Shown here: one piece after another, positions 2 through 61,872 of the stretch
Position numbering within the stretch: the stretch's first letter is position 1
Layout: every line of letters begins with the position of its first letter
Source: Dehalococcoidia bacterium
Lineage (GTDB): Bacteria > Chloroflexota > Dehalococcoidia > Lucifugimonadales > Australimonadaceae
Direction of reading: 5' to 3'
Assembly (NCBI GenBank): GCA_965249325.1
Contig: CBDFLP010000012.1
Span: 6,428 to 70,427, forward strand
DNA: 64,000 nucleotides
The notes under the pieces: generated by a model
Seen by the model: the letters and a program-made list of their open reading frames with translations, nothing else
Database searches by the model: none
Told to the model about the DNA's origin: nothing
Position numbers and translations under genes: made by a program

Positions 2-1315
2 CGCATTGAAGAGGCGGCGCGCCTCTACGCAGAGGCCGTCGCGGGCGCGATTCTGCTTGGCGGCGACAACTCAGTGGGCGGCACGCGGCGCACCATCTCC
101 CGCATGGCCGCCGCGCTCGCCCTCGCCACCGGCAACGTGGGCAAGCCCGGCGCCGGCGTTATGCCGGTCTACCACGGGGCCAATGAGCAGGGCGCGTGGG
201 ACATGGGCGTGTGGTCGAACTCCATACCGGGCCACCACCTCCTGAGCGAGCAGTCAGCTGTCGAGTCGCTGGGAGAGTCCTGGGGCGCTCAGCTATCCGG
301 CGAGCCCGGCGTCGGCAACCGGCACGTCTTCGACAACGCGCGCGACGGCCAAGTGAAGGCCATGGTCGTCCTCGGCGACCACGTCCACTATGAGGACGGC
401 GGCCTAGGCGACACGCTGGCGGGCTTGGACAAGCTCGATTTCCTCGTCGTCAGCGATGCGTTCATGTCCGCGGCGGCAGAAAGGGCTGACGTTGTCTTCC
501 CGGCCGAGGTATGGGCTGAGAAGACTGGCACGTACACGAACATCGAACGCCGCGTCCAGCCGTTGCGCAAGGTGCTCAAGAACAAGCGGACTGAGTCCAG
601 GAGCGACCTCGAAGTCATTGCGGGCATCGCGCGCGCCATGGGCGGGGACGGGTTCGACTACGAGGGGCCGGAGCAAGCGCTTGACGAAATCGCGCGGGTA
701 GTCCCGGAGTATGCCGGGATCTCTTACCGGCGGCTGCTGCGCGAGCGAATCGAGGTCGCGACGCCGCCGGACAACGAGCCGCAACCGACCCAGGTTATGT
801 ACACGGGCAACGTCCTGTCCGGGATTCAATGGCCGTGCAAGGACGAGAACGATGCCGGCGCGCCCGTGATGTATGCGAACGGCTTTCGTCACGGCAAGGC
901 GGCGCTTCAACCGGTTGCGTGGCATCCCCGCCCGGCGCGGAACTCGCAGTTTCCGATGATGCTCGCCCACGGACGCGTGCTGATCCAATCGGGGCGCAAG
1001 CCGGAAGTGGTCAGCGACGGTAAGCGCAACCGTGTCGAGCGCGAGGAGATGCTCGTCCTGAACCCGGCTGACGCCGCAGCCGTGGGCCTCGTCGACGGAC
1101 AGCAGGCGGTCGTGGTCACGGAGCAAGGCTTCGAGAAGCGCGGTATGGTCGCGGCGTCGGATGCCGTCCCAGCAGGCGTCGTGTCCTTGACCACTTTGTT
1201 TGGAGAGCTTGCGGTTGAGGTTGACTCCTCGGACCGCCCGGACCCGACGAACCATATCCCCAGACTCAATGCGGCACCGGCCAGAATCGGCCCCGCACAG
1301 CCGGAGCAAGCATGA
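2..1315 (+). CDS. Molybdopterin-dependent oxidoreductase, C-terminal portion (formate dehydrogenase alpha / NuoG-like); 5' end outside window
   Basis: The frame stays open upstream of the listed 74..1315 ORF back to nt 2 (RIEEAARLYAEAVAGAILLGGDN...). It has a GANEQGAWDMG-type motif and a C-terminal molybdopterin-dinucleotide-binding-like segment (LVLNPADAAAVGLVDGQQAVVVTEQG). The stop overlaps the next start (ATGA 1312-1315). Confidence 0.8.
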   Translation, partial: RIEEAARLYAEAVAGAILLGGDNSVGGTRRTISRMAAALALATGNVGKPGAGVMPVYHGANEQGAWDMGVWSNSIPGHHLLSEQSAVESLGESWGAQLSGEPGVGNRHVFDNARDGQVKAMVVLGDHVHYEDGGLGDTLAGLDKLDFLVVSDAFMSAAAERADVVFPAEVWAEKTGTYTNIERRVQPLRKVLKNKRTESRSDLEVIAGIARAMGGDGFDYEGPEQALDEIARVVPEYAGISYRRLLRERIEVATPPDNEPQPTQVMYTGNVLSGIQWPCKDENDAGAPVMYANGFRHGKAALQPVAWHPRPARNSQFPMMLAHGRVLIQSGRKPEVVSDGKRNRVEREEMLVLNPADAAAVGLVDGQQAVVVTEQGFEKRGMVAASDAVPAGVVSLTTLFGELAVEVDSSDRPDPTNHIPRLNAAPARIGPAQPEQA

Positions 1316-6127: not shown

Positions 6128-6937
6128 TTGCAGAGGTGGGCCATGGTCGATGAGCTGGTGAGGGAGCAAACCGAGACGGCGACGACGCAAGACCTCGCGG
6201 AGCAGTTCGCCCTGCGCCCCGACCTCGACGAGTCGCCTGAGTTCCTCGGCGGCCTATACAACCTGTCGGTCTGGAAGCCTAAGGACGCCGAGCACCGGTA
6301 CTTTCAGGAGCATGCTCCGAAGGCTGGCGAAGTCGCGCCGGACTTCACCCTCCCGCTCCTGGACGGCGGAGAGATTACTCTTTCGTCGCTGCGCGGGAAG
6401 CCGGTGATGATTGAGTTCGGCTCCGTCACCTGACCGCCGTGCGTAGCGGAGTCTCCGCTAATGGAACAGCTGGCCAAGCGGTATGCGGACGACGCGCACT
6501 TCCTGTTCGTCTACGTCCGCGAAGCACACCCCGGCGAGGCCTACCCGCCGCACCAGTACTACGAGCAGAAGACGCTGCACGCGAGGTCGTTCAGGGAGCG
6601 TCTGGGCATCGAGCGCACGATCGCAATCGATTCCCTGCAAGGCAAAGTGCACAGGGTGTACGGCGGCGTGTCGAACATGTCTTGGATCGTTGATCACACG
6701 GGCCGCGTCGCCTACCGGGCGGCATGGACAGTCGCGGACGACATAGAGTGGGCGCTCACGGAGATCATCGCGTCGCGGGAGCTGAAGCGCAGCGGGAAGT
6801 CCACCGCCACGTTCTACCGCGAGATCGTGGGGCTCCGGCCGCAACGCGCGCCGCTGGAGGGACTGCCGCGCTTCATGGGAGGCGCGGTGGCGGCGCGGCA
6901 GTTCGAAGCAGCCAAAGGGCGGACGGATCGGGGCTGA
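6128..6937 (+). CDS. Thioredoxin-fold, iodothyronine-deiodinase-like protein with in-frame UGA (probable selenocysteine at 6431-6433)
   Basis: ORFs 6128..6433 and 6461..6937 share one frame and are separated only by TGA. The context FGSVT-TGA-PPC puts the TGA at the nucleophile position of the GSxT[C/U]PP motif, and VYVREAHPGE follows downstream. A hairpin begins 10 nt after the TGA. Confidence 0.7.
6444..6460 (+). other. Putative bacterial SECIS hairpin
   Basis: Perfect 7-bp stem tagcgga / tccgcta with loop gtc, starting 10 nt after TGA 6431-6433. Confidence 0.55.
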
Positions 6938-7481: not shown

Positions 7482-8522
7482 CTAGTCGGGGACGTTGGCG
7501 AATGCCGGGAAGACCTTCAACGGGTTGGTGTTGATGATCGTGATCTTGTCCTCTTCCGAGAGCGAAGGCAGGTAGTCGATGACCGGGAGCAGGTTGTCGG
7601 AGGTGAGGCCGACTGCGGTCTGGGACGGGTGGTCGCTTTCCTTACGCACGTTGCGGCCAGAGCCGGGGGCTTCGGTGCCGAAGGCAATGTTCGCTGGGCC
7701 CCACTGCTTGATGGCAAGCTCGAGGTAGTCGATGTCGTACGTGCAGGTGTCGAAGAAGAGGTTGTCGCCCTTCCACTTGCCCCGGTGGCCGGAGGAAGCG
7801 ATGAAGCGGTCCAGCGCGCCTCCCGCGTGGGCGATGCAGATGCGGAGGCCGGGGAACTTCTCGAAGATGTCGCTGTAGGCGAGGATGCGCGTTGCGAGGA
7901 ACGTTTCGACGACGAACCCGACCTGGTAGTTGCCGGGGATGTGGCCGATGCGCGGATCTAGGCAGTTGGTGCCGTGGATGAACACCGGCACGTCCCACTC
8001 CTGGCACTTCTCATACACGGGGTGCCAGTAGGGCTCGTGCATGCCGGGTGAGTTGTGGCGGCCGTCCGGGTCCGGGCTCAGGTACGTGCCGACGAACCCG
8101 TAGTCCTTCACGTTCATCTCGAACTCGGGGATGCAGTTGCTGAGGTCCGGGGCCTCGGCAATCTGGGGCAGCATGGACGCGCCGAGGAAGCGGGTGGGGT
8201 GGTTCTGCACCTGCTTGCGGATGGTGTCATTTGTGAACTCGCACCATGGGTCGTAGAGGTTGCGGGGCATCCAGCCCATCATCGTGAACGGGCGCGGGCC
8301 GATGACTTGCACGTCGATGTTCCGCTCGTCCATGTACTCCGCGTGCATCTTGTTCGTCGCGGCGAACGCGTCGTCGCTGAGGTCGCCGCCCGCCGAGCCG
8401 GTCGCCCGCAGCGGGCTTGCGCCTACGTGCCCGGAGGAGAACCCTCCAACGATCCACGAGCGGACCGAATTCGGCGCCGATACGTGGCCGTGCACATCAA
8501 GAACCTTCGTGCCTTTGAACAT
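7482..8522 (-). CDS. Amidohydrolase_2 family metal-dependent hydrolase/decarboxylase (ACMSD-like)
   Basis: 346 aa. The N-terminal VLDVHGHV metal-binding HxH motif, a later HGT..., and IAHAGG are typical of this family. Confidence 0.85.
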   Translation of the reverse strand: MFKGTKVLDVHGHVSAPNSVRSWIVGGFSSGHVGASPLRATGSAGGDLSDDAFAATNKMHAEYMDERNIDVQVIGPRPFTMMGWMPRNLYDPWCEFTNDTIRKQVQNHPTRFLGASMLPQIAEAPDLSNCIPEFEMNVKDYGFVGTYLSPDPDGRHNSPGMHEPYWHPVYEKCQEWDVPVFIHGTNCLDPRIGHIPGNYQVGFVVETFLATRILAYSDIFEKFPGLRICIAHAGGALDRFIASSGHRGKWKGDNLFFDTCTYDIDYLELAIKQWGPANIAFGTEAPGSGRNVRKESDHPSQTAVGLTSDNLLPVIDYLPSLSEEDKITIINTNPLKVFPAFANVPD

Positions 8523-23258: not shown

Positions 23259-24080
23259 ATGGCCGACTACGCTCGCGCAGACCTGCTCGTCGAGACTGAT
23301 TGGCTCGCCGACCACCTCGGCGACCCCAACGTCCGAGTGGTTGAGATGGCCCAGGAAGGCGGCGACTTCGAGGCAGGGCATATCCCCGGCGCCGCGCTCT
23401 CTCCCACCTGGCAGATTAAAGGAACGGAGAACACGCGGCTGGTCGCGCCCCCGGACGAGGCCAAAGCCTGGTTTGAGTCCGTCGGCATCGGCGACGATAC
23501 GCTGGTGGTCGGCTACGACCGCTTCCACAGTCGCGACGCTGGGCGCTTGTGGTGGGTGCTCAACTACTACGGGCACACGAACGTGAAGGTGCTCAACGGC
23601 GGATGGACCAAGTGGCTGGCGGAGGGGAGGGCGGTCGCGTCGGGCCCTTCGACGGTCGCCGCCGGTGGCGCGTTCACCCCCAAGGGGCCGGACCACGAGA
23701 TCGAGTCCACCGTGGAGAAGCTCAAGGACGCGATCGGACGAGACGACGTCGTTATCTGGGACGTCCGCTCGGACGCCGAGTACAGCGGAGAGAACGCTCG
23801 GGGCAATGCCCGCTTCGGTCACGTGCCGGGCGCGGTTCATCTGGAATGGACGCATCTGATGGCCGCCGACGATACGTTCAAGCCCCCGGAGGAGCTGGAG
23901 GCCCTCACGCGCGGTCTCGGGATAACGCCTGAGAAGACCGTACATATCTACTGACAGGGCGGAGTGCGTGCGGCGCACGCAGCATTCGTCCTGGCGTTGA
24001 TCGGCCACCCTCGAGCCTGCATGTACGACGGCTCGATGGGCGAATGGGCCAACCGCGACGACACGCCATTGGAGACGTAG
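23259..24080 (+). CDS. Two-domain rhodanese (thiosulfate/3-mercaptopyruvate sulfurtransferase-like) with in-frame UGA at the catalytic Cys position (probable selenocysteine, 23952-23954)
   Basis: Start is MADYARADLLVETDWLADHL. The frame continues through TGA: ...KTVHIY-TGA-QGGVRAAHAAFVLALIGHP.ACMYDGSMGEWANRDDTPLET, ending at TAG 24078-24080. The TGA replaces the Cys of the rhodanese active-site loop Y-C-x-x-G-x-R. Confidence 0.7.
23965..23981 (+). other. Putative bacterial SECIS hairpin
   Basis: Perfect 7-bp stem tgcgtgc / gcacgca with loop ggc, starting 10 nt after TGA 23952-23954. The spacing is the same as at 6444. Confidence 0.55.
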
Positions 24081-27957: not shown

Positions 27958-28548
27958 GCGGGGTTGGCGCTGTCGATCTCGGAGCAGCCATAGTTGTTGC
28001 AGGCGACGACCCAGTAGTAGTTGTGGCTGTCGTCGGGGTCGGTGTGCGTGTAACTGGTGACGGTAAGCTCGGTCGCAAGCTCGTCGCAGAAGCTCGGTCC
28101 GCTGCTACCCAGCCGGCAACTCGAGTCGAAGAAGTCGTCGTAGTAGACGGTGTAGGACTCCGCATCCGCGGAGGCGTCCCAGGTGAGGACGATGGCCGAG
28201 CCGTCGTACTCGTAACGCTGGTTGGCGGGCGCAACGGGCGGAGAGCCGCCGAGCTGGGCGGGGTTGGCGCTGTCGATCTCGGAGCAGCCATAGTTGTTGC
28301 AGGCGACGACCCAATAGTAGTTGCGGCTGGTGTCGGGGTCGGTGTGTGTAACTGGTGGCGGTAAGCTCGGTCGCAAGCTCGTCGCAGAAGCTCGGTCCGC
28401 TGCTACCCAGCCGGCAACTCGAGTCGAAGAAGTTGTCGTAGTAGACGGTGTAGGAGGCGGCATCCGCGGAGGCGTCCCAGGTGAGGACGATGGCCGAGCC
28501 GTCGTACTCGTAACGCTGGTTGGCAGGCGCAACGGGCGGAGGGCCGCC
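27958..28548 (-). repeat. About 300-bp tandem duplication inside the LRR gene (FN3-like module x2)
   Basis: 27958-28250 and 28258-28548 are near-identical by eye. The upstream (5') copy has gtgtgtgta where the other has gtgtgcgtgta, a 2-nt deletion that causes the frame change. Confidence 0.85.
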
Positions 28549-28954
28549 GGTGGTCGGAGTCGGGACCGGAGTTGGAGTCGGGACTGGAGTCGGGGTCGGC
28601 ATCGGGGTCGCCGTCACCGTCGCCGTCACCGTCGCCCTGGCGGTATCGGTGGCAGGGGCGGCCCCTCTTGCGTTGTCTCCGATGCCGCGCCCGCTTACGG
28701 CGAGGGTGAAAGTAAGTTCGACTCCCGCCGCCAGCGCCGGAATCGTCACCACCGGAGTGGCGCTCCCGTGATTGTCAAACCTTACCGTCACTCCGCTTGC
28801 GGGGCTGGTCAGCGCCCAGGAGTAAATGACATTCGCGCCCCACGGCCCGCCATCGCTGCCGCTGCCGTCGAGCGTCACATCGCCCCCCGCAGTCGGAACC
28901 GCTCCGTCATCCGGCCGGGCATCCGCCGTGGGGGCGAAGGGTGCGCCTGGATTA

Positions 28955-29545
28955 TCCCCCAGGTACAGATTCGCCAGCCCGGTCAGATCGTTGAAGACGC
29001 CGTCGGGAAGCGTGGTTAGCGCGTTGCTGTTCAGACTCAGATCCGTCAGCGCGGTCAGCCCGTCGAACACCCTGGCGCGAAGCGTGGTCAGGCCATTGTT
29101 GCCCAGAAGCAAAATCCTCACCCCGGTCAGATCGTCGAACACCCCGGCGGGAAGCGTGGTCAGACGGTTGTTGCCCAGGGCCAGAGTCTCCAGCGCGGTC
29201 AGGTTGTCGAACACCCCGTCGGGAAGCGTGGTCAGACGGTTGTTGCCCAGGACCAGAGTCTCCAGCGCGGTCAGGTTGTCGAACACCCCGTCGGGAAGCG
29301 TGGTCAGCGCGTTGCTGTTCAGGTTCAGTTCCGTCAGCATGGTCAGGTCGTCGAACACCCCGTCGGGAAGCGTGGTCAGCGCGTTGCTGTACAGCTGCAG
29401 TTCCGTCAGCGCCGTCAAATCGTCGAACACCTCGTCGGGAAGCGTGGTCAGCGCGTTATATGACAGGTCCAACTCCCTCAGCGAGGTCAGCCCGTCGAAG
29501 TCCCCTTCGGCGAGCGCAGCTATGCGCTGGTTGCTGAGATCCAGC
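28955..29545 (-). repeat. 72-bp tandem coding repeats (LRR units)
   Basis: The unit gtcgaacaccccgtcgggaagcgtggtcag(a/c)g(c/g)gtt(g)... recurs, encoding ...LTTLPDGVFD.LT.L..L.L..N. Confidence 0.85.
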
Positions 29546-30170
29546 TGACGGGTGATGGCGGCGAGATGGGCGTCGGTGACGTCGGCGCAGTCGATGGCCA
29601 CGCCCTGATCAGCCTCGATCAGGCGCAGCAACTCGACGCGCACCTCAGTTGTGCGCCCGCAGATGCCAGAGCTTGCGCTACGAAGTTGTAGACCACACCG
29701 TTGATGGTCGCATCCGTGATGTTGATGCTGCTCCTGCTGGTGAAGAACAGGAAACTCCCGCGACCGGACGAGTCGACCGAGAACTCGACGCTGCGCCGGG
29801 ATACGTACAGCTCTCCCCGGAGCCAACAATCAACCCCGGGCGGCACACGTCCGTGCCCTGCGCGCCCACGGGGGCAAGGGCCGCAAGGGCAGACGCCGCG
29901 ACTGCAAGCACCAGCGCGGCTGCCATCAGGAGCTTCCGCCGTGGGCGGCGTCCCGTAGCCTGCGCGGGCCGGTTGTCCAGAGCCCTCGCTTGACCCGCTT
30001 GCTTGAAGAACTGCATGAACATCCACTCCACGACTGCAAGCGACTATGTCATCGTTCCCGATGTTTAGGTCCACTCCCAGTGCCTTAGCGCCACGAGAGA
30101 GGAAGTCGTGGCTCGCGTTGTGGGCGAAAGACTTGTCCTTCATCCTCTTGGGCACGGCCGACAGGCGCGG

Positions 30171-41085: not shown

Positions 41086-41964
41086 GTGACCTCCGGCGCG
41101 TGGCCGACCATACCTCCTACGTTCCTTGCTCTCGACCCGAGCGAGCATTCCCTGGAGCGGTCGCGGTGGGTCATCCTGCCCGTGCCCTATGAGGCCACGA
41201 CGAGCTACCGGAAGGGAACGCAGGCGGGTCCTGCAGCCATCATCCGCGCGTCGGTTGAGATGGAGGACTACGACCCAGAGTTCGGGTACGACCCCTGCGA
41301 CGCCGGCATCTACACGGCCCCGCCCATCGAGCCCGCCCTCGCCGGTCCCGAGGCGATGGCCCGCCGAGTCGCGGAGGCCGTCGGCGCGTACGCGGACGCC
41401 GACAAGCTCGTGGGGATGCTTGGCGGCGAGCACTCCATCTCGTCGGGGGCGGTGGCGACCCTAGCGGAGCGGCGGCCCGGCCTGAGCGTCCTCGTGTTCG
41501 ACGCCCAAGCCGACCTGCGCGACGAGTATCAGGGCGCCGCGTACAGCCATGCGTGCGCTACGCGACGGATGCTCGATCACGCGGCGGCGACCATCGTCGG
41601 TGTCCGCAGCATGACAGGGGACGAGGCGGCGTTCGCGGCGGAGCGGGGCGTTCCTCTGTTCCTACGGGGCGCTGAGCCGATTACGGACGTGGGCGCAATC
41701 GTCGACACGCTCGCCGAGGACGTCTACGTGTCGTTCGACCTCGACGCCTTCGACCCGTCGTTCATGGCGGCGGTCGGCACGCCTGAGCCGGGGGGCATGG
41801 GCTGGTGGGAGGCGCTGCGGATACTTCGCGCCGTGGGGGAGCGTCGCCGCATAGTGGGCTTCGACGTCGTCGAGCTATCGCCCGGCGAGGGTCCCGAGGC
41901 GTGCGCATATACAGCCGCGAAGCTGGCGTACAAGCTTATCGCTTACGCGTCGCTTGGGGGGTAG
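41086..41964 (+). CDS. speB: Agmatinase / ureohydrolase family protein
   Basis: 292 aa with arginase-family Mn motifs GGEHSIS, VFDAQADL and SFDLDAFDPSFMAAVGTPEPGG. Confidence 0.85.
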   Translation: MTSGAWPTIPPTFLALDPSEHSLERSRWVILPVPYEATTSYRKGTQAGPAAIIRASVEMEDYDPEFGYDPCDAGIYTAPPIEPALAGPEAMARRVAEAVGAYADADKLVGMLGGEHSISSGAVATLAERRPGLSVLVFDAQADLRDEYQGAAYSHACATRRMLDHAAATIVGVRSMTGDEAAFAAERGVPLFLRGAEPITDVGAIVDTLAEDVYVSFDLDAFDPSFMAAVGTPEPGGMGWWEALRILRAVGERRRIVGFDVVELSPGEGPEACAYTAAKLAYKLIAYASLGG

Positions 41965-42040
41965 GCTTCCCTGGGGGCTCATGCCCACCCCTCCTCGGTC
42001 CTCCCCCGCGGATGGGGGAGGAAGAGATAGAGTGAGCGCC

Positions 42041-43234
42041 ATGGCGAGCAGGCCTGACCGCACCATCTATATGGATCACGCCGCGACCACGGCCATCGCG
42101 CCTGAAGTGGTCGAGGCGATGCGGCCCTACCTGACAGAGGGATACGGCAACCCGTCGAGCATCTACGCGCTTGGGCAGCAGGCGCGTCGCGCCATCGACG
42201 ACGCGCGGGAGCGGTGCGCCAAGGTCTTGGGCGCTCGGGCGGGGGAGATCGTCTTCACGAGCGGCGGGACCGAGTCGGACAACGCCGGCATCATGGGCCC
42301 AGCCCTGGCGCTGAAGGACCAAGGCCGTCACATCGTGACCACGAAGATCGAGCACCACGCGGTGCTGCACGCGGCCGCGCTGCTGGAAACGCTCGGCTGG
42401 GAAGCGTCCTACGTCGCGCCCAGCAAGGACGGCGTCGTGCGTGCGGGGGACGTGCTAGACGCGGTGCGGCGGGAGACGACCGTCGTGAGCGTGATGCTGG
42501 CGAACAACGAGATCGGGACGGTCCAGCCCGTCGCCGAGGTCGCGCGCCTCGTGAAGGAGCGCGCATCGGTGGAGCGCCGGTCGATTGTCGTACACACGGA
42601 CGCGGTGCAGGCTGCGGGAGCGATGCCGGTGGACGTGGACGCCCTAGGCGTCGACCTCCTCTCGCTCTCGGCCCACAAGTTCAACGGCCCCAAGGGAGTC
42701 GGACTGCTGTACGTCCGGCGCGGCACGCCATTCACGCCCACGCAGGTCGGCGGCGGACAGGAGCGCGACCGGCGCGCGGGCACGGAGAACACCGCGGGCA
42801 TCGTCGGCATGAGCGTTGCGCTCGAGAACGCGGAGCGCCGCCGCGCCCGGAACGCGGCGGCCTGCGCCGGGCTGCGCGACCGGTTGGTCAGCGGCATCCT
42901 CGAACGGGTGGAGCGCGTCGAGGTGAACGGAGACCTCGACGCGAGGCTGCCGGGCAACGTGAACGTCTCCTTCCCCGGGGTGGAGGCCGAGCCGCTGCTG
43001 ATGGGGCTCGACCTCGCGGGAATCGCGGCGTCGAGCGGCAGCGCGTGTACGGCGGGCTCGCTGGAGCCGTCGCATGTTCTGCTGGCGTTGGGGCGGTCGA
43101 CGGAGGCGGCGAGGACGAGCCTCCGGCTCACGGTCGGGCCGGAGAACACCGAGGAGGAGGTGGACTACGTGGTGGAGACGATAGCCCGCTTGGCGCCCAA
43201 GCTGCGGGCGCTCTCCCGAAATGGGAGAGGCTAG
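42041..43234 (+). CDS. Cysteine desulfurase (NifS/IscS class, PLP-dependent)
   Basis: Start is at MASRPDRTIYMDHAATT. The PLP lysine motif is SLSAHKFNGPKG and the catalytic loop is SSGSACTAGSLEPSHVL. Only the 3' part of ORF 41954..43234 upstream of this start is uncertain. Confidence 0.9.
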   Translation: MASRPDRTIYMDHAATTAIAPEVVEAMRPYLTEGYGNPSSIYALGQQARRAIDDARERCAKVLGARAGEIVFTSGGTESDNAGIMGPALALKDQGRHIVTTKIEHHAVLHAAALLETLGWEASYVAPSKDGVVRAGDVLDAVRRETTVVSVMLANNEIGTVQPVAEVARLVKERASVERRSIVVHTDAVQAAGAMPVDVDALGVDLLSLSAHKFNGPKGVGLLYVRRGTPFTPTQVGGGQERDRRAGTENTAGIVGMSVALENAERRRARNAAACAGLRDRLVSGILERVERVEVNGDLDARLPGNVNVSFPGVEAEPLLMGLDLAGIAASSGSACTAGSLEPSHVLLALGRSTEAARTSLRLTVGPENTEEEVDYVVETIARLAPKLRALSRNGRG

Positions 43235-59707: not shown

Positions 59708-60340
59708 CTAGGTAGCCAGCACTGCTTCCACATCTTTCCGTAGCTCGGCGAATGCAGGCAATTGTGAGAGATTGGCGAAGGTCTTGGTTTCCTCAGCGAT
59801 CCTAATCCAAGTACGCGCCGTGAAGAGATTGCGTTCCCGCCGGCGATGGCGGGTGGTGGCCTCGGCTGCCAAGGAGACTAAGTCGCGGAGTGTCTTCTTT
59901 GGGTCGGGTAGGTCCTCCAAGTGGGTGGTTGTGGGCAGACTCAGGAGAGTCGCGCCGTTGGGGTTCCGGGCTGCGTTCCGAATAGCCTGCTCGTCGGTAA
60001 GCAGCCACGTTTCCGTCATCTTGACAGGGATGACGGGAATGTGCTTGGCGACTGACGTGACTCTGTCCACAGCAACCTGAATCTCGGCTCGGCGGGCATG
60101 GGGAGATTGACTCTCAGCATCACGATGGACGAAGAGAATGTCACAGGGGAAGAGACTTAGGGCCATCGCAATCCGGCCATCAAGGAGGCTCGGCGGGCGA
60201 GGAACCCCTCGAAGATCGGCGAATGCTGGGACAAGCGTTAGGTTAGGTTCGATATCCGTTAGGAGCCAATTGATAATCGGCTTAAGTGCCTCATCGGATG
60301 GCCCGTCAGTTAAAAGCGTGTAGTGGAGTTCGCGCGCCAT
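59708..60340 (-). CDS. DUF4276-like protein (possible TOPRIM-like partner of the upstream ATPase)
   Basis: 210 aa. LLTDGPSDEALKPII (acidic motif 1), LFVHRDAES (motif 2) and VIPVKMTETWLLTD (DUF4276-like E-x-WLL-x-D). It starts 5 nt after the ATPase stop. Confidence 0.6.
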   Translation of the reverse strand: MARELHYTLLTDGPSDEALKPIINWLLTDIEPNLTLVPAFADLRGVPRPPSLLDGRIAMALSLFPCDILFVHRDAESQSPHARRAEIQVAVDRVTSVAKHIPVIPVKMTETWLLTDEQAIRNAARNPNGATLLSLPTTTHLEDLPDPKKTLRDLVSLAAEATTRHRRRERNLFTARTWIRIAEETKTFANLSQLPAFAELRKDVEAVLAT

Positions 60341-60345
60341 GCTGT

Positions 60346-61872
60346 CTAAACGGGGAGGGGCAGCATGAGCTGAACGTCGCTACGCTGTGCGACAAGTTTT
60401 TCGCGCCGGCGTGTGGAGGGTTGGTCAGAGTCCTGAGGCTCCTCTTCGTCATCTGGAACGCCTGCGGGGTTGAGGTAGGACATGAGCGTCCCAAGAGCGA
60501 TTGGGTTAGGAGGCCGACCCTCCTTTGTATCGAGTTCCTCTCTCCAGGTGTAGGGGAGATATCCGAACCGTACGTACGCTGCGCGGCCATCCCCAGAGGG
60601 AGCAGGCCTGTTGACTGATTGGGAGACCAGCAGACTTGATTCCGGCACGTGAGTAACCACCACCGGAGAGTGAGTGTTAACCATGACCTGCCGCAGGGGG
60701 CTGCTTTGCGGGAAGTCGTTCTTTGGGTCCGTTGTGATGTCGTTCAAGAGACGCAGCATTGCGGGGACACGCGCCGGGTGTATGCCGTTCTCGGGCTCCT
60801 CCAGGCAGATTAGTCCTCCGGAGTCCTCCTCCATTTCTAGGATGGCGAGAGCTAGGAACCGGAGCGTCCCGTCTGATAGCGAACGGGCGTCATGTGGCGT
60901 GCCGTCGCTAAGGCGCACCTGAAGGGTCAGGAGCTCTCGTTGGTCGTCCCGATGCACCACAACTTTGCCGACGTCATCAATCAGTTGAGCGAGTCGATTG
61001 GAAATGTCAGTGTAGACGGCCTCTTCATCAACTGCGGAAGGGATGCCGGACTCAACTTGCGGGACTGTCGCCATGTAGTGGAGTGTTGCGGCTGCGTGAG
61101 CGCCATCCATCCCAAGGTGGATGGGCGACGTGAACTCATCGGGCTTACGCAGTGCAGAAGGCTCTAGTTGTAGACGCTTCCAGGATGACATTTCATTCTT
61201 CGCAAGAAGGGCAGTTGGACTCTCCGCGGCATTGACTGCCGATAGGACTGTTCGCGGAAGGTCACGAGCCGATCGATTGAGGGTTCGGCCTGAACGCCCA
61301 TCTTGATGGAGCCGTATGACGCGGCTTTCACCGTCTCCTACGGTGGTGATGTAAGGTGCGGCACGCTGTCCTGTGACAACTGATCTTCGCCAGGTAGGGG
61401 TATGGTGAAACCCCAATCGTCGTGGGGCCTCCGTCTTATTGATGTGAGACAGCGTCTCCTCTGTAATCTCAATGCTGTTGGGGCCTGTTCTAGTTCTCTC
61501 TCGGTAGGCGAGCTCCAGCGAGTACCGGAGGTACGTGCTGGTCGCGTGAGCGTCTTGCCCGAGGTCGTCTCTCCCCGTCCCGGGCACAATCATTTCGGCC
61601 TCAAAGCCCATCGTAGACGCCTGGCTATCGCCTGATCGGTGGAAAAGGCTTCGGACATCAGCTGACCTACCGCCCTCCTCACGGACGGTCGTCGCTGCTT
61701 CGAGGAGTGGGCGGCTGGCCAAGAGGCTGAGGAAGTGGATTGCGTCGAATAGGTTCGATTTGCCAGTCGCATTCGGGCCCGCGATGCAAGTGAACGGGCC
61801 AAAGGCGATATCCACGTCAACGAGATTCTTGAAACCCGAGATTTTTAGACGAGTAAGCATAACGCTCCTCAA
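60346..61872 (-). CDS. ABC/SMC-like AAA ATPase (AAA_21/AAA_15, OLD/AriA/RecF-like)
   Basis: MLTRLKISGFKNL, Walker A GPNATGKSNLFDAI, signature-like LSDGTLRFLAL and Walker B/D-loop LICLEEPENGIHP are present. The start is 61872 or ATG 61860. Confidence 0.8.
   Translation of the reverse strand: MRSVMLTRLKISGFKNLVDVDIAFGPFTCIAGPNATGKSNLFDAIHFLSLLASRPLLEAATTVREEGGRSADVRSLFHRSGDSQASTMGFEAEMIVPGTGRDDLGQDAHATSTYLRYSLELAYRERTRTGPNSIEITEETLSHINKTEAPRRLGFHHTPTWRRSVVTGQRAAPYITTVGDGESRVIRLHQDGRSGRTLNRSARDLPRTVLSAVNAAESPTALLAKNEMSSWKRLQLEPSALRKPDEFTSPIHLGMDGAHAAATLHYMATVPQVESGIPSAVDEEAVYTDISNRLAQLIDDVGKVVVHRDDQRELLTLQVRLSDGTPHDARSLSDGTLRFLALAILEMEEDSGGLICLEEPENGIHPARVPAMLRLLNDITTDPKNDFPQSSPLRQVMVNTHSPVVVTHVPESSLLVSQSVNRPAPSGDGRAAYVRFGYLPYTWREELDTKEGRPPNPIALGTLMSYLNPAGVPDDEEEPQDSDQPSTRRREKLVAQRSDVQLMLPLPV

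Follow-up and report, generated by a model that had tools for sequence, protein, structure and literature searches.

Two open reading frames (ORFs) in a 64,000-nucleotide stretch of Dehalococcoidia DNA (contig CBDFLP010000012.1 of assembly GCA_965249325.1; the whole stretch is hereafter called the window) are very probably one gene, 6143..6937, that encodes a deiodinase-like thioredoxin-fold oxidoreductase. Residue 97 of its product would be selenocysteine (Sec, or U), specified by an in-frame UGA codon and a hairpin downstream of it. A first-pass annotation of the same DNA, made from the sequence alone, had described two ORFs in one frame separated only by TGA 6431-6433. We read and translated the window directly and confirmed this arrangement: ORFs 6143..6433 and 6461..6937 share a frame, the TGA is the sole interruption, and translation across it gives ...GKPVMIEFGSVT*PPCVAESPLMEQLAKRYADDAHFLFVYVREAHPGE..., where the asterisk stands for the TGA. 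Counted from ATG 6143, the product has 264 amino acids (aa) with U at residue 97, in the motif PVMIEFGSVT-U-PPCVAESPLMEQLAK (FGSVT-U-PPC). U97 and C100 are the only Sec or Cys residues in the protein.

The upstream ORF had originally been drawn from position 6128. Its frame held, but its start did not: ATG 6143 is most likely the real start, favored by a gaggtgg that resembles a ribosome-binding site (RBS) and by the N termini of orthologs (MVDE... or MVRE...), which align from the same ATG. TTG 6128 is unlikely as a start because the orthologs begin with these residues. Downstream of the TGA, GGAG 6448-6451, contributed by the stem of the hairpin, sits 9 nt upstream of the in-frame ATG that encodes Met107. 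The two resemble an RBS and a start codon, and public gene calls therefore all split the gene, leaving C-terminal fragments common in the databases.

The codon at the break corresponds to the catalytic residue of the family. In a search of 5.8 billion proteins, we examined the best 120 matches. Fifty-two of these are C-terminal fragments of 147-176 aa whose first residue is the Met located ten codons past the UGA; they are the same gene, truncated in gene calling. Full-length homologs of about 305 aa (33-51% identity) make up the other 68, and the column that holds U in our translation is occupied by Cys in 66 of them (FGSATCPMT) and by Ser in 2. The UGA aligns with a conserved Cys, as the first-pass annotation implied when it placed the TGA at the nucleophile position. 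The hits of an exhaustive HMMER search with the C-terminal half fell into 804 representative clusters (50% identity), and 294 of these had E ≤ 1e-10. Many of them begin at the internal Met, and such truncation of Sec forms therefore seems to be widespread in databases.

Orthologs keep the UGA without exception. Among 185,579 species-representative genomes scanned, we found 22 loci, all in metagenome-assembled genomes (MAGs) of Dehalococcoidia, SAR202, or Chloroflexota, and contig look-ups added 7 more. The internal TGA is present in 27/27 distinct orthologs (53-97% identity), within FGS[VIF]T-*-P[PY]C, whereas the terminal stops of these genes vary (TAG in 18, TGA in 5, TAA in 3). A check suggested at the outset was whether close relatives carry TGC or TGT at this codon; none do down to 53% identity, and all have TGA. 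Among the sequences recovered, there was no Cys variant within the Sec clade. The UPPC motif occurs in the window gene and 26 loci, and one distant homolog has UPYC. The 27-nt bridge from the TGA to the internal ATG evolves as codons, with PPC invariant and changes mostly at third positions. TGA is the ordinary stop in 12 of the 42 large ORFs of the window, so the genetic code is not globally reassigned.

A distant Sec-form homolog with the motif FGSFT-U-PYC was found at positions 7950-8000 of a locus on contig DATLTP010000301.1, from a MAG labeled Bacillota. It carries a longer, different hairpin and adjoins cytochrome b/Rieske genes. This homolog shows that the UxxC Sec form reaches beyond the close Dehalococcoidia orthologs, with a lineage-specific selenocysteine insertion sequence (SECIS).

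The second line of evidence is a bacterial SECIS-like element downstream of the UGA. It consists of a lower stem (6437-6440/6461-6464), an upper stem (6445-6450/6454-6459), and an apical loop (6451-6453, GUC). The hairpin was first described as 7 bp (tagcgga-gtc-tccgcta, 6444-6460) beginning 10 nt after the TGA. It is present in the window as described, but only some orthologs share its seventh pair, 6444-6460; the conserved upper stem has 6 bp and begins 11 nt after the UGA. An 11-nt spacer between UGA and stem is optimal for the minimal Escherichia coli fdhF SECIS. Numbering the T of the TGA as 1, the RNAalifold consensus of 22 orthologous segments has a 4-bp lower stem (7-10/31-34) and an upper stem at 15-20/24-29, closed by a 3-nt apical loop whose first base is always G. 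In this structure, 96.7% of the cells are paired, compared with 32-55% when the partners are slid, and compensatory changes are seen at the base of the upper stem, where pair 15-29 occurs as GC, GU, AU, and UA.

Four synonymous sites of the hairpin are frozen. In 24 distinct sequences of 55-97% identity, codons +5 to +8 (GCG GAG TCT CCG), which make up the upper stem and the loop, are free of synonymous changes, while degenerate codons for conserved amino acids elsewhere have a mean codon entropy of 0.84 bits; the permutation p value for a run of four such invariant codons is 0.024. Where Val, Phe, or Ala takes the place of Ser at residue +7, the codon is still NNT, preserving the A20-U24 pair. 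The same hairpin geometry is found at only 3 of the 1,526 TGAs on both strands of the window, compared with 0.78 ± 0.9 in dinucleotide shuffles, and 2 of these 3 are in-frame active-site TGAs, namely, that of the deiodinase-like gene and that of a rhodanese gene. The third, TGA 42552 (+ strand; stem +15 to +29, G at +21), is out of frame within a gene of the Aminotran_5 family (41954..43234), and we regard it as a chance match. The latter gene encodes a class V aminotransferase of the cysteine desulfurase/selenocysteine lyase type.

The rhodanese gene is a second candidate selenoprotein gene. Its product is a two-domain rhodanese/sulfurtransferase with the UGA in the context HIY-U-QGGVRA, and it matches a known selenoprotein family, the "rhodanese-related sulfurtransferase, UxxG." Identical spacing of the two hairpins had been claimed in the first-pass annotation, and we found that both UGAs do carry a hairpin of exactly the same geometry; that of the rhodanese gene is strong (z = -2.4). 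In about 90 of the best 120 rhodanese matches, the protein is cut short at the UGA, and C-Q-[GA]-G-[IV]-R-A stands at this site in 27 full-length homologs. Relatives of both UGA-containing genes lie on the same long contigs (2,381,319 bp and 711,552 bp), which indicates that the two genes travel together. Two reviews, from 2022 and 2026, also list a deiodinase-like UxxC family beside the rhodanese-related UxxG family (PMC9312934, PMC13188914).

Features of the deiodinase-like gene and the rhodanese-family gene in the window (CDS, coding sequence)
Feature	Positions	Strand	Evidence
Shine-Dalgarno-like gaggtgg	6133..6139	+	3 nt upstream of ATG; sequence read
Full CDS, probable deiodinase-like selenoprotein, 264 aa, true stop TGA 6935-6937	6143..6937	+	Single frame; PF00837; orthologs; AlphaFold2 model
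UGA probably read as Sec (U97), first residue of U-P-P-C	6431..6433	+	TGA in 27/27 orthologs; Cys in 66/68 homologs
Bacterial SECIS-like element	6437..6464	+	RNAalifold consensus; pairing, codon conservation, geometry
TGC, Cys100, presumed resolving residue	6440..6442	+	Invariant in Sec-form orthologs; only Cys
Internal Met107 codon, false start of the 158-aa "ORF"	6461..6463	+	Conserved; 52 of the best 120 matches begin here
Rhodanese-family gene, in-frame TGA 23952-23954 at active-site Cys (Y-U-QGGVRA)	23259..24080	+	Hairpin and homologs

Profile searches, run on the translation with C substituted for U, place the protein in the thioredoxin clan. The Pfam family T4_deiodinase (PF00837) matches residues 59-192 with 47.7 bits (cutoff, 27), but the assignment to this family is not exclusive, as AhpC-TSA (PF00578; 47.6 bits, cutoff 26) scores almost equally and Redoxin (43 bits) is also above its cutoff. 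Two NCBIfam models remained under their cutoffs: deiodinase_rel (NF038285), with 96.6 bits against a cutoff of 250 and only profile positions 174-325 of 347 matched, and ResA, with 46.6 bits against 170. The peroxiredoxin motif P-x-x-x-T-x-x-C is absent from KPVMIEFGSVT-U, where Thr directly precedes U and there is no Pro at -7. The best sequence matches in the PDB are a Bacteroides TlpA-like protein (2ls5), mouse Dio3 (4tr3; E = 1e-9), and mouse Dio2 (9h48; E = 2.4e-9). With Dio3, the aligned region takes in FGSxTCPP...YIEEAHP, and HMMER pairs fgsvtCppcvaes...flfvyvreahpge of 4tr3 with FGSCTCPPFMARM...FLIIYIEEAHPSDGW. In these alignments, S94, T96, Y124, E127, H129, and P130 match deiodinase active-site residues.

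An AlphaFold2 model, built from an alignment with X at residue 97, has a mean predicted local distance difference test score of 74; its core exceeds 90, and the first 47 residues, which are acidic, are modeled as disordered. It adopts the thioredoxin fold. One compact domain spans both ORF halves, and residue 97 lies between strand 88-93 and helix 99-113, at the N terminus of helix α1, which is the classical position of CxxC. Foldseek against the PDB ranked the mouse Dio2 catalytic core (9h48) first (E = 1.9e-11), followed by ResA/TlpA-type proteins and then Dio3. Superpositions gave template modeling (TM) scores of 0.85-0.87 and root mean square deviations (RMSDs) of about 2.2 for ResA/TlpA and 0.67-0.69 and 4.6 for the deiodinases. 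The passing Pfam score, the alignments to Dio3 and Dio2 through FGSxT[C/U]PP...Y.xEAHP, and the predicted fold together bear out the earlier recognition of a deiodinase-like thioredoxin-fold motif. We found no transmembrane segment (the highest 19-residue Kyte-Doolittle mean is 0.94) and no hydrophobic stretch; the protein is therefore soluble, and it is cytoplasmic.

The closest known system is the "deiodinase-like protein, Pfam00837," a bacterial selenoprotein family reported from the Sargasso Sea, with Cys homologs and a bacterial SECIS, for which a redox function and not deiodination was proposed (Zhang, Fomenko, and Gladyshev 2005, PMC1088965). The window gene resembles it in its Pfam family, the UxxC motif, the single Sec, the alignment of the UGA with Cys in homologs, and a hairpin directly after the UGA with a small, G-containing loop, as well as in its marine uncultured source and presumed redox role. 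We see no essential difference between the two; the window gene belongs to an ortholog group of Dehalococcoidia/SAR202-type Chloroflexota that is publicly split into two ORFs. At the level of sequence, it has every feature expected of the prokaryotic deiodinase-like selenoprotein family.

The window protein is not an animal-type deiodinase. It shares with animal Dio1-3 (4tr3, 9h48) a thioredoxin/peroxiredoxin-like fold, FGS-x-T-U-P-P, Y-x-x-E-A-H-P, and a Sec nucleophile, but it has an acidic N terminus modeled as disordered in place of a membrane anchor, U-P-P-C where the animal enzymes have U-P-P/S-F, and EAHPGEAYPP without the HPSDGW extension. Its SECIS lies inside the coding sequence, unlike the animal SECIS in the 3' untranslated region. 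The structural overlap is moderate (TM scores of 0.67-0.69), and thyroid hormones are not expected substrates. The core superposes most closely on proteins of the ResA/TlpA/DsbE type (4nmu, 1st9), in which a redox pair with the same x-x spacing is likewise found at the N terminus of α1. Those proteins are extracytoplasmic, membrane anchored, and use Cys-x-x-Cys, whereas the window protein, a soluble one that lacks both signal peptide and anchor, combines Sec with a deiodinase-type EAHP.

The Cys homologs of about 305 aa, a subfamily of their own, include MAG proteins from Terriglobales (P0036, P0043, and P0066). At 34-51% identity, they share with the window protein the FGSxT-[C]-P...FLFVYVREAHPGE core, an N-terminal YNY motif, and C-terminal GG..A..F motifs. 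However, five of these homologs (the same three with P0058 and P0111) have C-x-x-T, with a single redox residue, in place of U-x-x-C, and the Cys form carries a C-terminal hydrophobic anchor (Kyte-Doolittle means of 1.7-1.9) and an EAVGI tail, both of which the window protein lacks. The Sec and Cys forms thus differ in architecture and probably also in location and mechanism.

In the mechanism that we postulate, the hairpin, which begins 11 nt after UGA 6431-6433, would bind the Sec-specific elongation factor SelB loaded with Sec-tRNA(Sec), and the UGA would then be decoded as selenocysteine (U97) and not as a stop; we infer this from the conservation, the geometry, and the known bacterial mechanism. 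During catalysis, U97 and Cys100 would most likely cycle between a selenolate/thiol pair and an intramolecular selenenylsulfide, given the UxxC motif and the fact that these are the only Sec or Cys residues. Thioredoxin or a similar thiol system could re-reduce the selenenylsulfide. The residues Ser94-Thr96...Tyr124-x-x-Glu127-Ala-His129-Pro130 suggest an acid-base/proton-relay setting around the selenol, unlike that of a plain disulfide exchanger. The most likely activity would be the reduction of an oxidized small molecule or protein (a peroxide, sulfenate, or disulfide). Gene order (MutS, PNPOx-like gene, deiodinase-like gene, Zn-ribbon gene) is kept only in close relatives, and distant Sec-form homologs have unrelated neighbors, so gene context gives no clue to function.

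An alternative hypothesis on function is that the protein is a selenium-dependent reductive dehalogenase that works like the animal deiodinases and takes halogen from halogenated phenolics or other natural organohalogens, such as sponge bromotyrosine derivatives and alkaloids or bromophenols, and not a generic thiol/peroxide oxidoreductase. The Dio2 catalytic core is the best structural match, S-x-T-U...Y-x-x-E-A-H-P is conserved, several of the MAGs with orthologs are from sponges (SAR202 bin16 from Aplysina aerophoba; the RHO1 and SB bins are assigned to sponges by name only), and the window encodes a eukaryote-like protein rich in leucine-rich repeats (LRRs). We nevertheless consider this hypothesis unlikely. 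The core is closer to ResA/TlpA (TM score of 0.86, RMSD of 2.2) than to the deiodinases (0.69 and 4.6), the HPSDGW motif and the N-terminal anchor are absent, and U-x-x-C is typical of dithiol-type oxidoreductases. The conserved neighbors give no pointer to halogenated substrates, and those who first described the family expected a redox role for it and not deiodination (PMC1088965). If true, the hypothesis would make the protein a prokaryotic functional counterpart of the thyroid hormone deiodinases and provide a cobalamin-independent route of dehalogenation in the class Dehalococcoidia.

Several observations weigh against a selenoprotein with U97 as its catalytic residue. Pfam scans of 40 ORFs detected no SelA, SelB, or SelD in the 64-kb window, and ARAGORN found no tRNA-Sec in the window, where it reported only a tRNA-Lys, and no tRNA gene in 23 orthologous loci of about 2.5-7 kb each. 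These loci showed no selA, selB, or selD either. The one Aminotran_5 protein, mentioned above, is not SelA. The gene is tied to Sec machinery through a published table of clusters of orthologous groups (COGs) for the MAG of a 75%-identical ortholog, and that MAG is a bin, not an isolate. For the hairpin, no Rfam model matched the window at gathering level, and a permissive E-value search of 6380-6540 gave only noise, although this says little, given how much bacterial SECIS elements vary and how few of them Rfam covers. The folding energy is unremarkable in its GC-rich context (z = +0.27 and -0.65 against shuffles); thermodynamics alone gives the element no support, while conservation and geometry do. 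Covariation is thin, with double changes at one pair only, since coding constraint acts on the stem as well, and C28 is replaced by U in several relatives, giving a G-U wobble. The closest Cys homologs, being CxxT and not CxxC, longer, and tail anchored, are paralogs and not U-to-C orthologs. Finally, we infer the catalytic chemistry and the substrate entirely from sequence and predicted structure.

The lack of Sec machinery in the window, together with a short hairpin of unexceptional folding energy, would also be compatible with a UGA that is read through without Sec, either by near-cognate Trp or Cys insertion or by hairpin-stimulated leaky termination, giving a Cys, Trp, or mixed product. 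This is very improbable in our view. The UGA occupies the catalytic Cys position of the family, where a need for Cys would lead one to expect TGC or TGT in at least some of the 27 orthologs, and it is seen in none. The spacing and the small, G-containing apical loop are typical of bacterial SECIS elements (PMC1088965), and the hairpin recurs at another active-site UGA. A related MAG that carries an ortholog is, moreover, reported to encode SelA, SelB, and SelD. This is SAR202 bin16 (MPMJ00000000), which was recovered from the sponge Aplysina aerophoba (PMC5649159, Table 2); its ortholog, on contig MPMJ01000004.1, is 75% identical to the window gene and keeps the TGA, and one copy each of COG1921 (SelA), COG3276 (SelB), and COG0709 (SelD) is listed for it (Slaby et al. 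2017, PMC5649159, Table S4).

Hardly tenable is the idea that the locus comprises two separate small genes, or one gene that a nonsense mutation has interrupted, with a 96-aa peptide ending at TGA 6431 and a 158-aa protein from ATG 6461 that has GGAG 6448-6451 as its RBS. Every public gene call does split here, and the ATG and GGAG, with their 9-nt spacing, are conserved in all orthologs, but a conserved Met and the stem of the SECIS account for both. The TGA lies between strand β1 and helix α1 of one compact domain that is modeled confidently on both sides. Across orthologs, the 27 nt of the spacer are kept as codons of the same frame, and in uninterrupted Cys homologs the corresponding segment is CPMT.... 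The internal "stop" never changes while the real ones do, and a pseudogene would not remain intact down to 53% identity. Conservation of the halves as separate genes, a pattern that the first-pass annotation had set against its own call, was not seen; the bridge is kept as codons, and the TGA lies inside one domain. The database pattern, the orthologs, the contrast between stops, the genetic code, and the bridge would together exclude both a pseudogene and two independent genes. A single gene with a Sec codon at position 97 is the reading that we retain, and each check run from among those proposed with the first-pass annotation spoke for it.

The left edge of the window holds an ORF (2..1315, + strand) that encodes only the C-terminal portion of a molybdopterin oxidoreductase (PF00384 and PF01568) and runs off the edge; a gene of the NAD_binding_1 family (ferredoxin reductase type; 1312-2064, + strand) overlaps it by 4 nt. 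The first-pass annotation had called this molybdoenzyme formate dehydrogenase-like and cited it as a frequent host of Sec. Its identity as a molybdopterin oxidoreductase stands, but the naming as a formate dehydrogenase does not, and its N-terminal region, the place expected for a Sec/Cys ligand, is not part of the window. The eukaryote-like LRR protein is encoded at 28105-29829 (- strand); it has 574 aa that consist mostly of leucine-rich repeats (LRR_8, E = 6e-49). Such repeat proteins have often been reported in sponge symbionts, and its presence fits with the sponge origin of several MAGs that carry orthologs of the deiodinase-like gene. An AAA_21/AAA_15 (OLD/AbiEii-like) ATPase gene (60346-61872, - strand) adjoins a gene for a 210-aa protein with no Pfam match (59708-60340, - strand), and the two could form an anti-phage defense pair.

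These findings are of value mainly because they correct the annotation and document that SAR202-type Dehalococcoidia use selenium. This clade would encode at least two selenoproteins, one deiodinase-like and the other a rhodanese, both of which are systematically split or truncated in public annotation; the selenoproteome and the selenium dependence of an abundant marine or sponge-associated lineage are therefore likely to be undercounted. The compact SECIS geometry (an 11-nt spacer, a 6-bp stem, and a triloop that begins with G) offers a simple, lineage-specific search pattern. The deiodinase-like family has been known for twenty years with no bacterial member that has a known substrate, and a member that is soluble, has 264 aa, and carries one U-x-x-C pair would be well suited to biochemistry.

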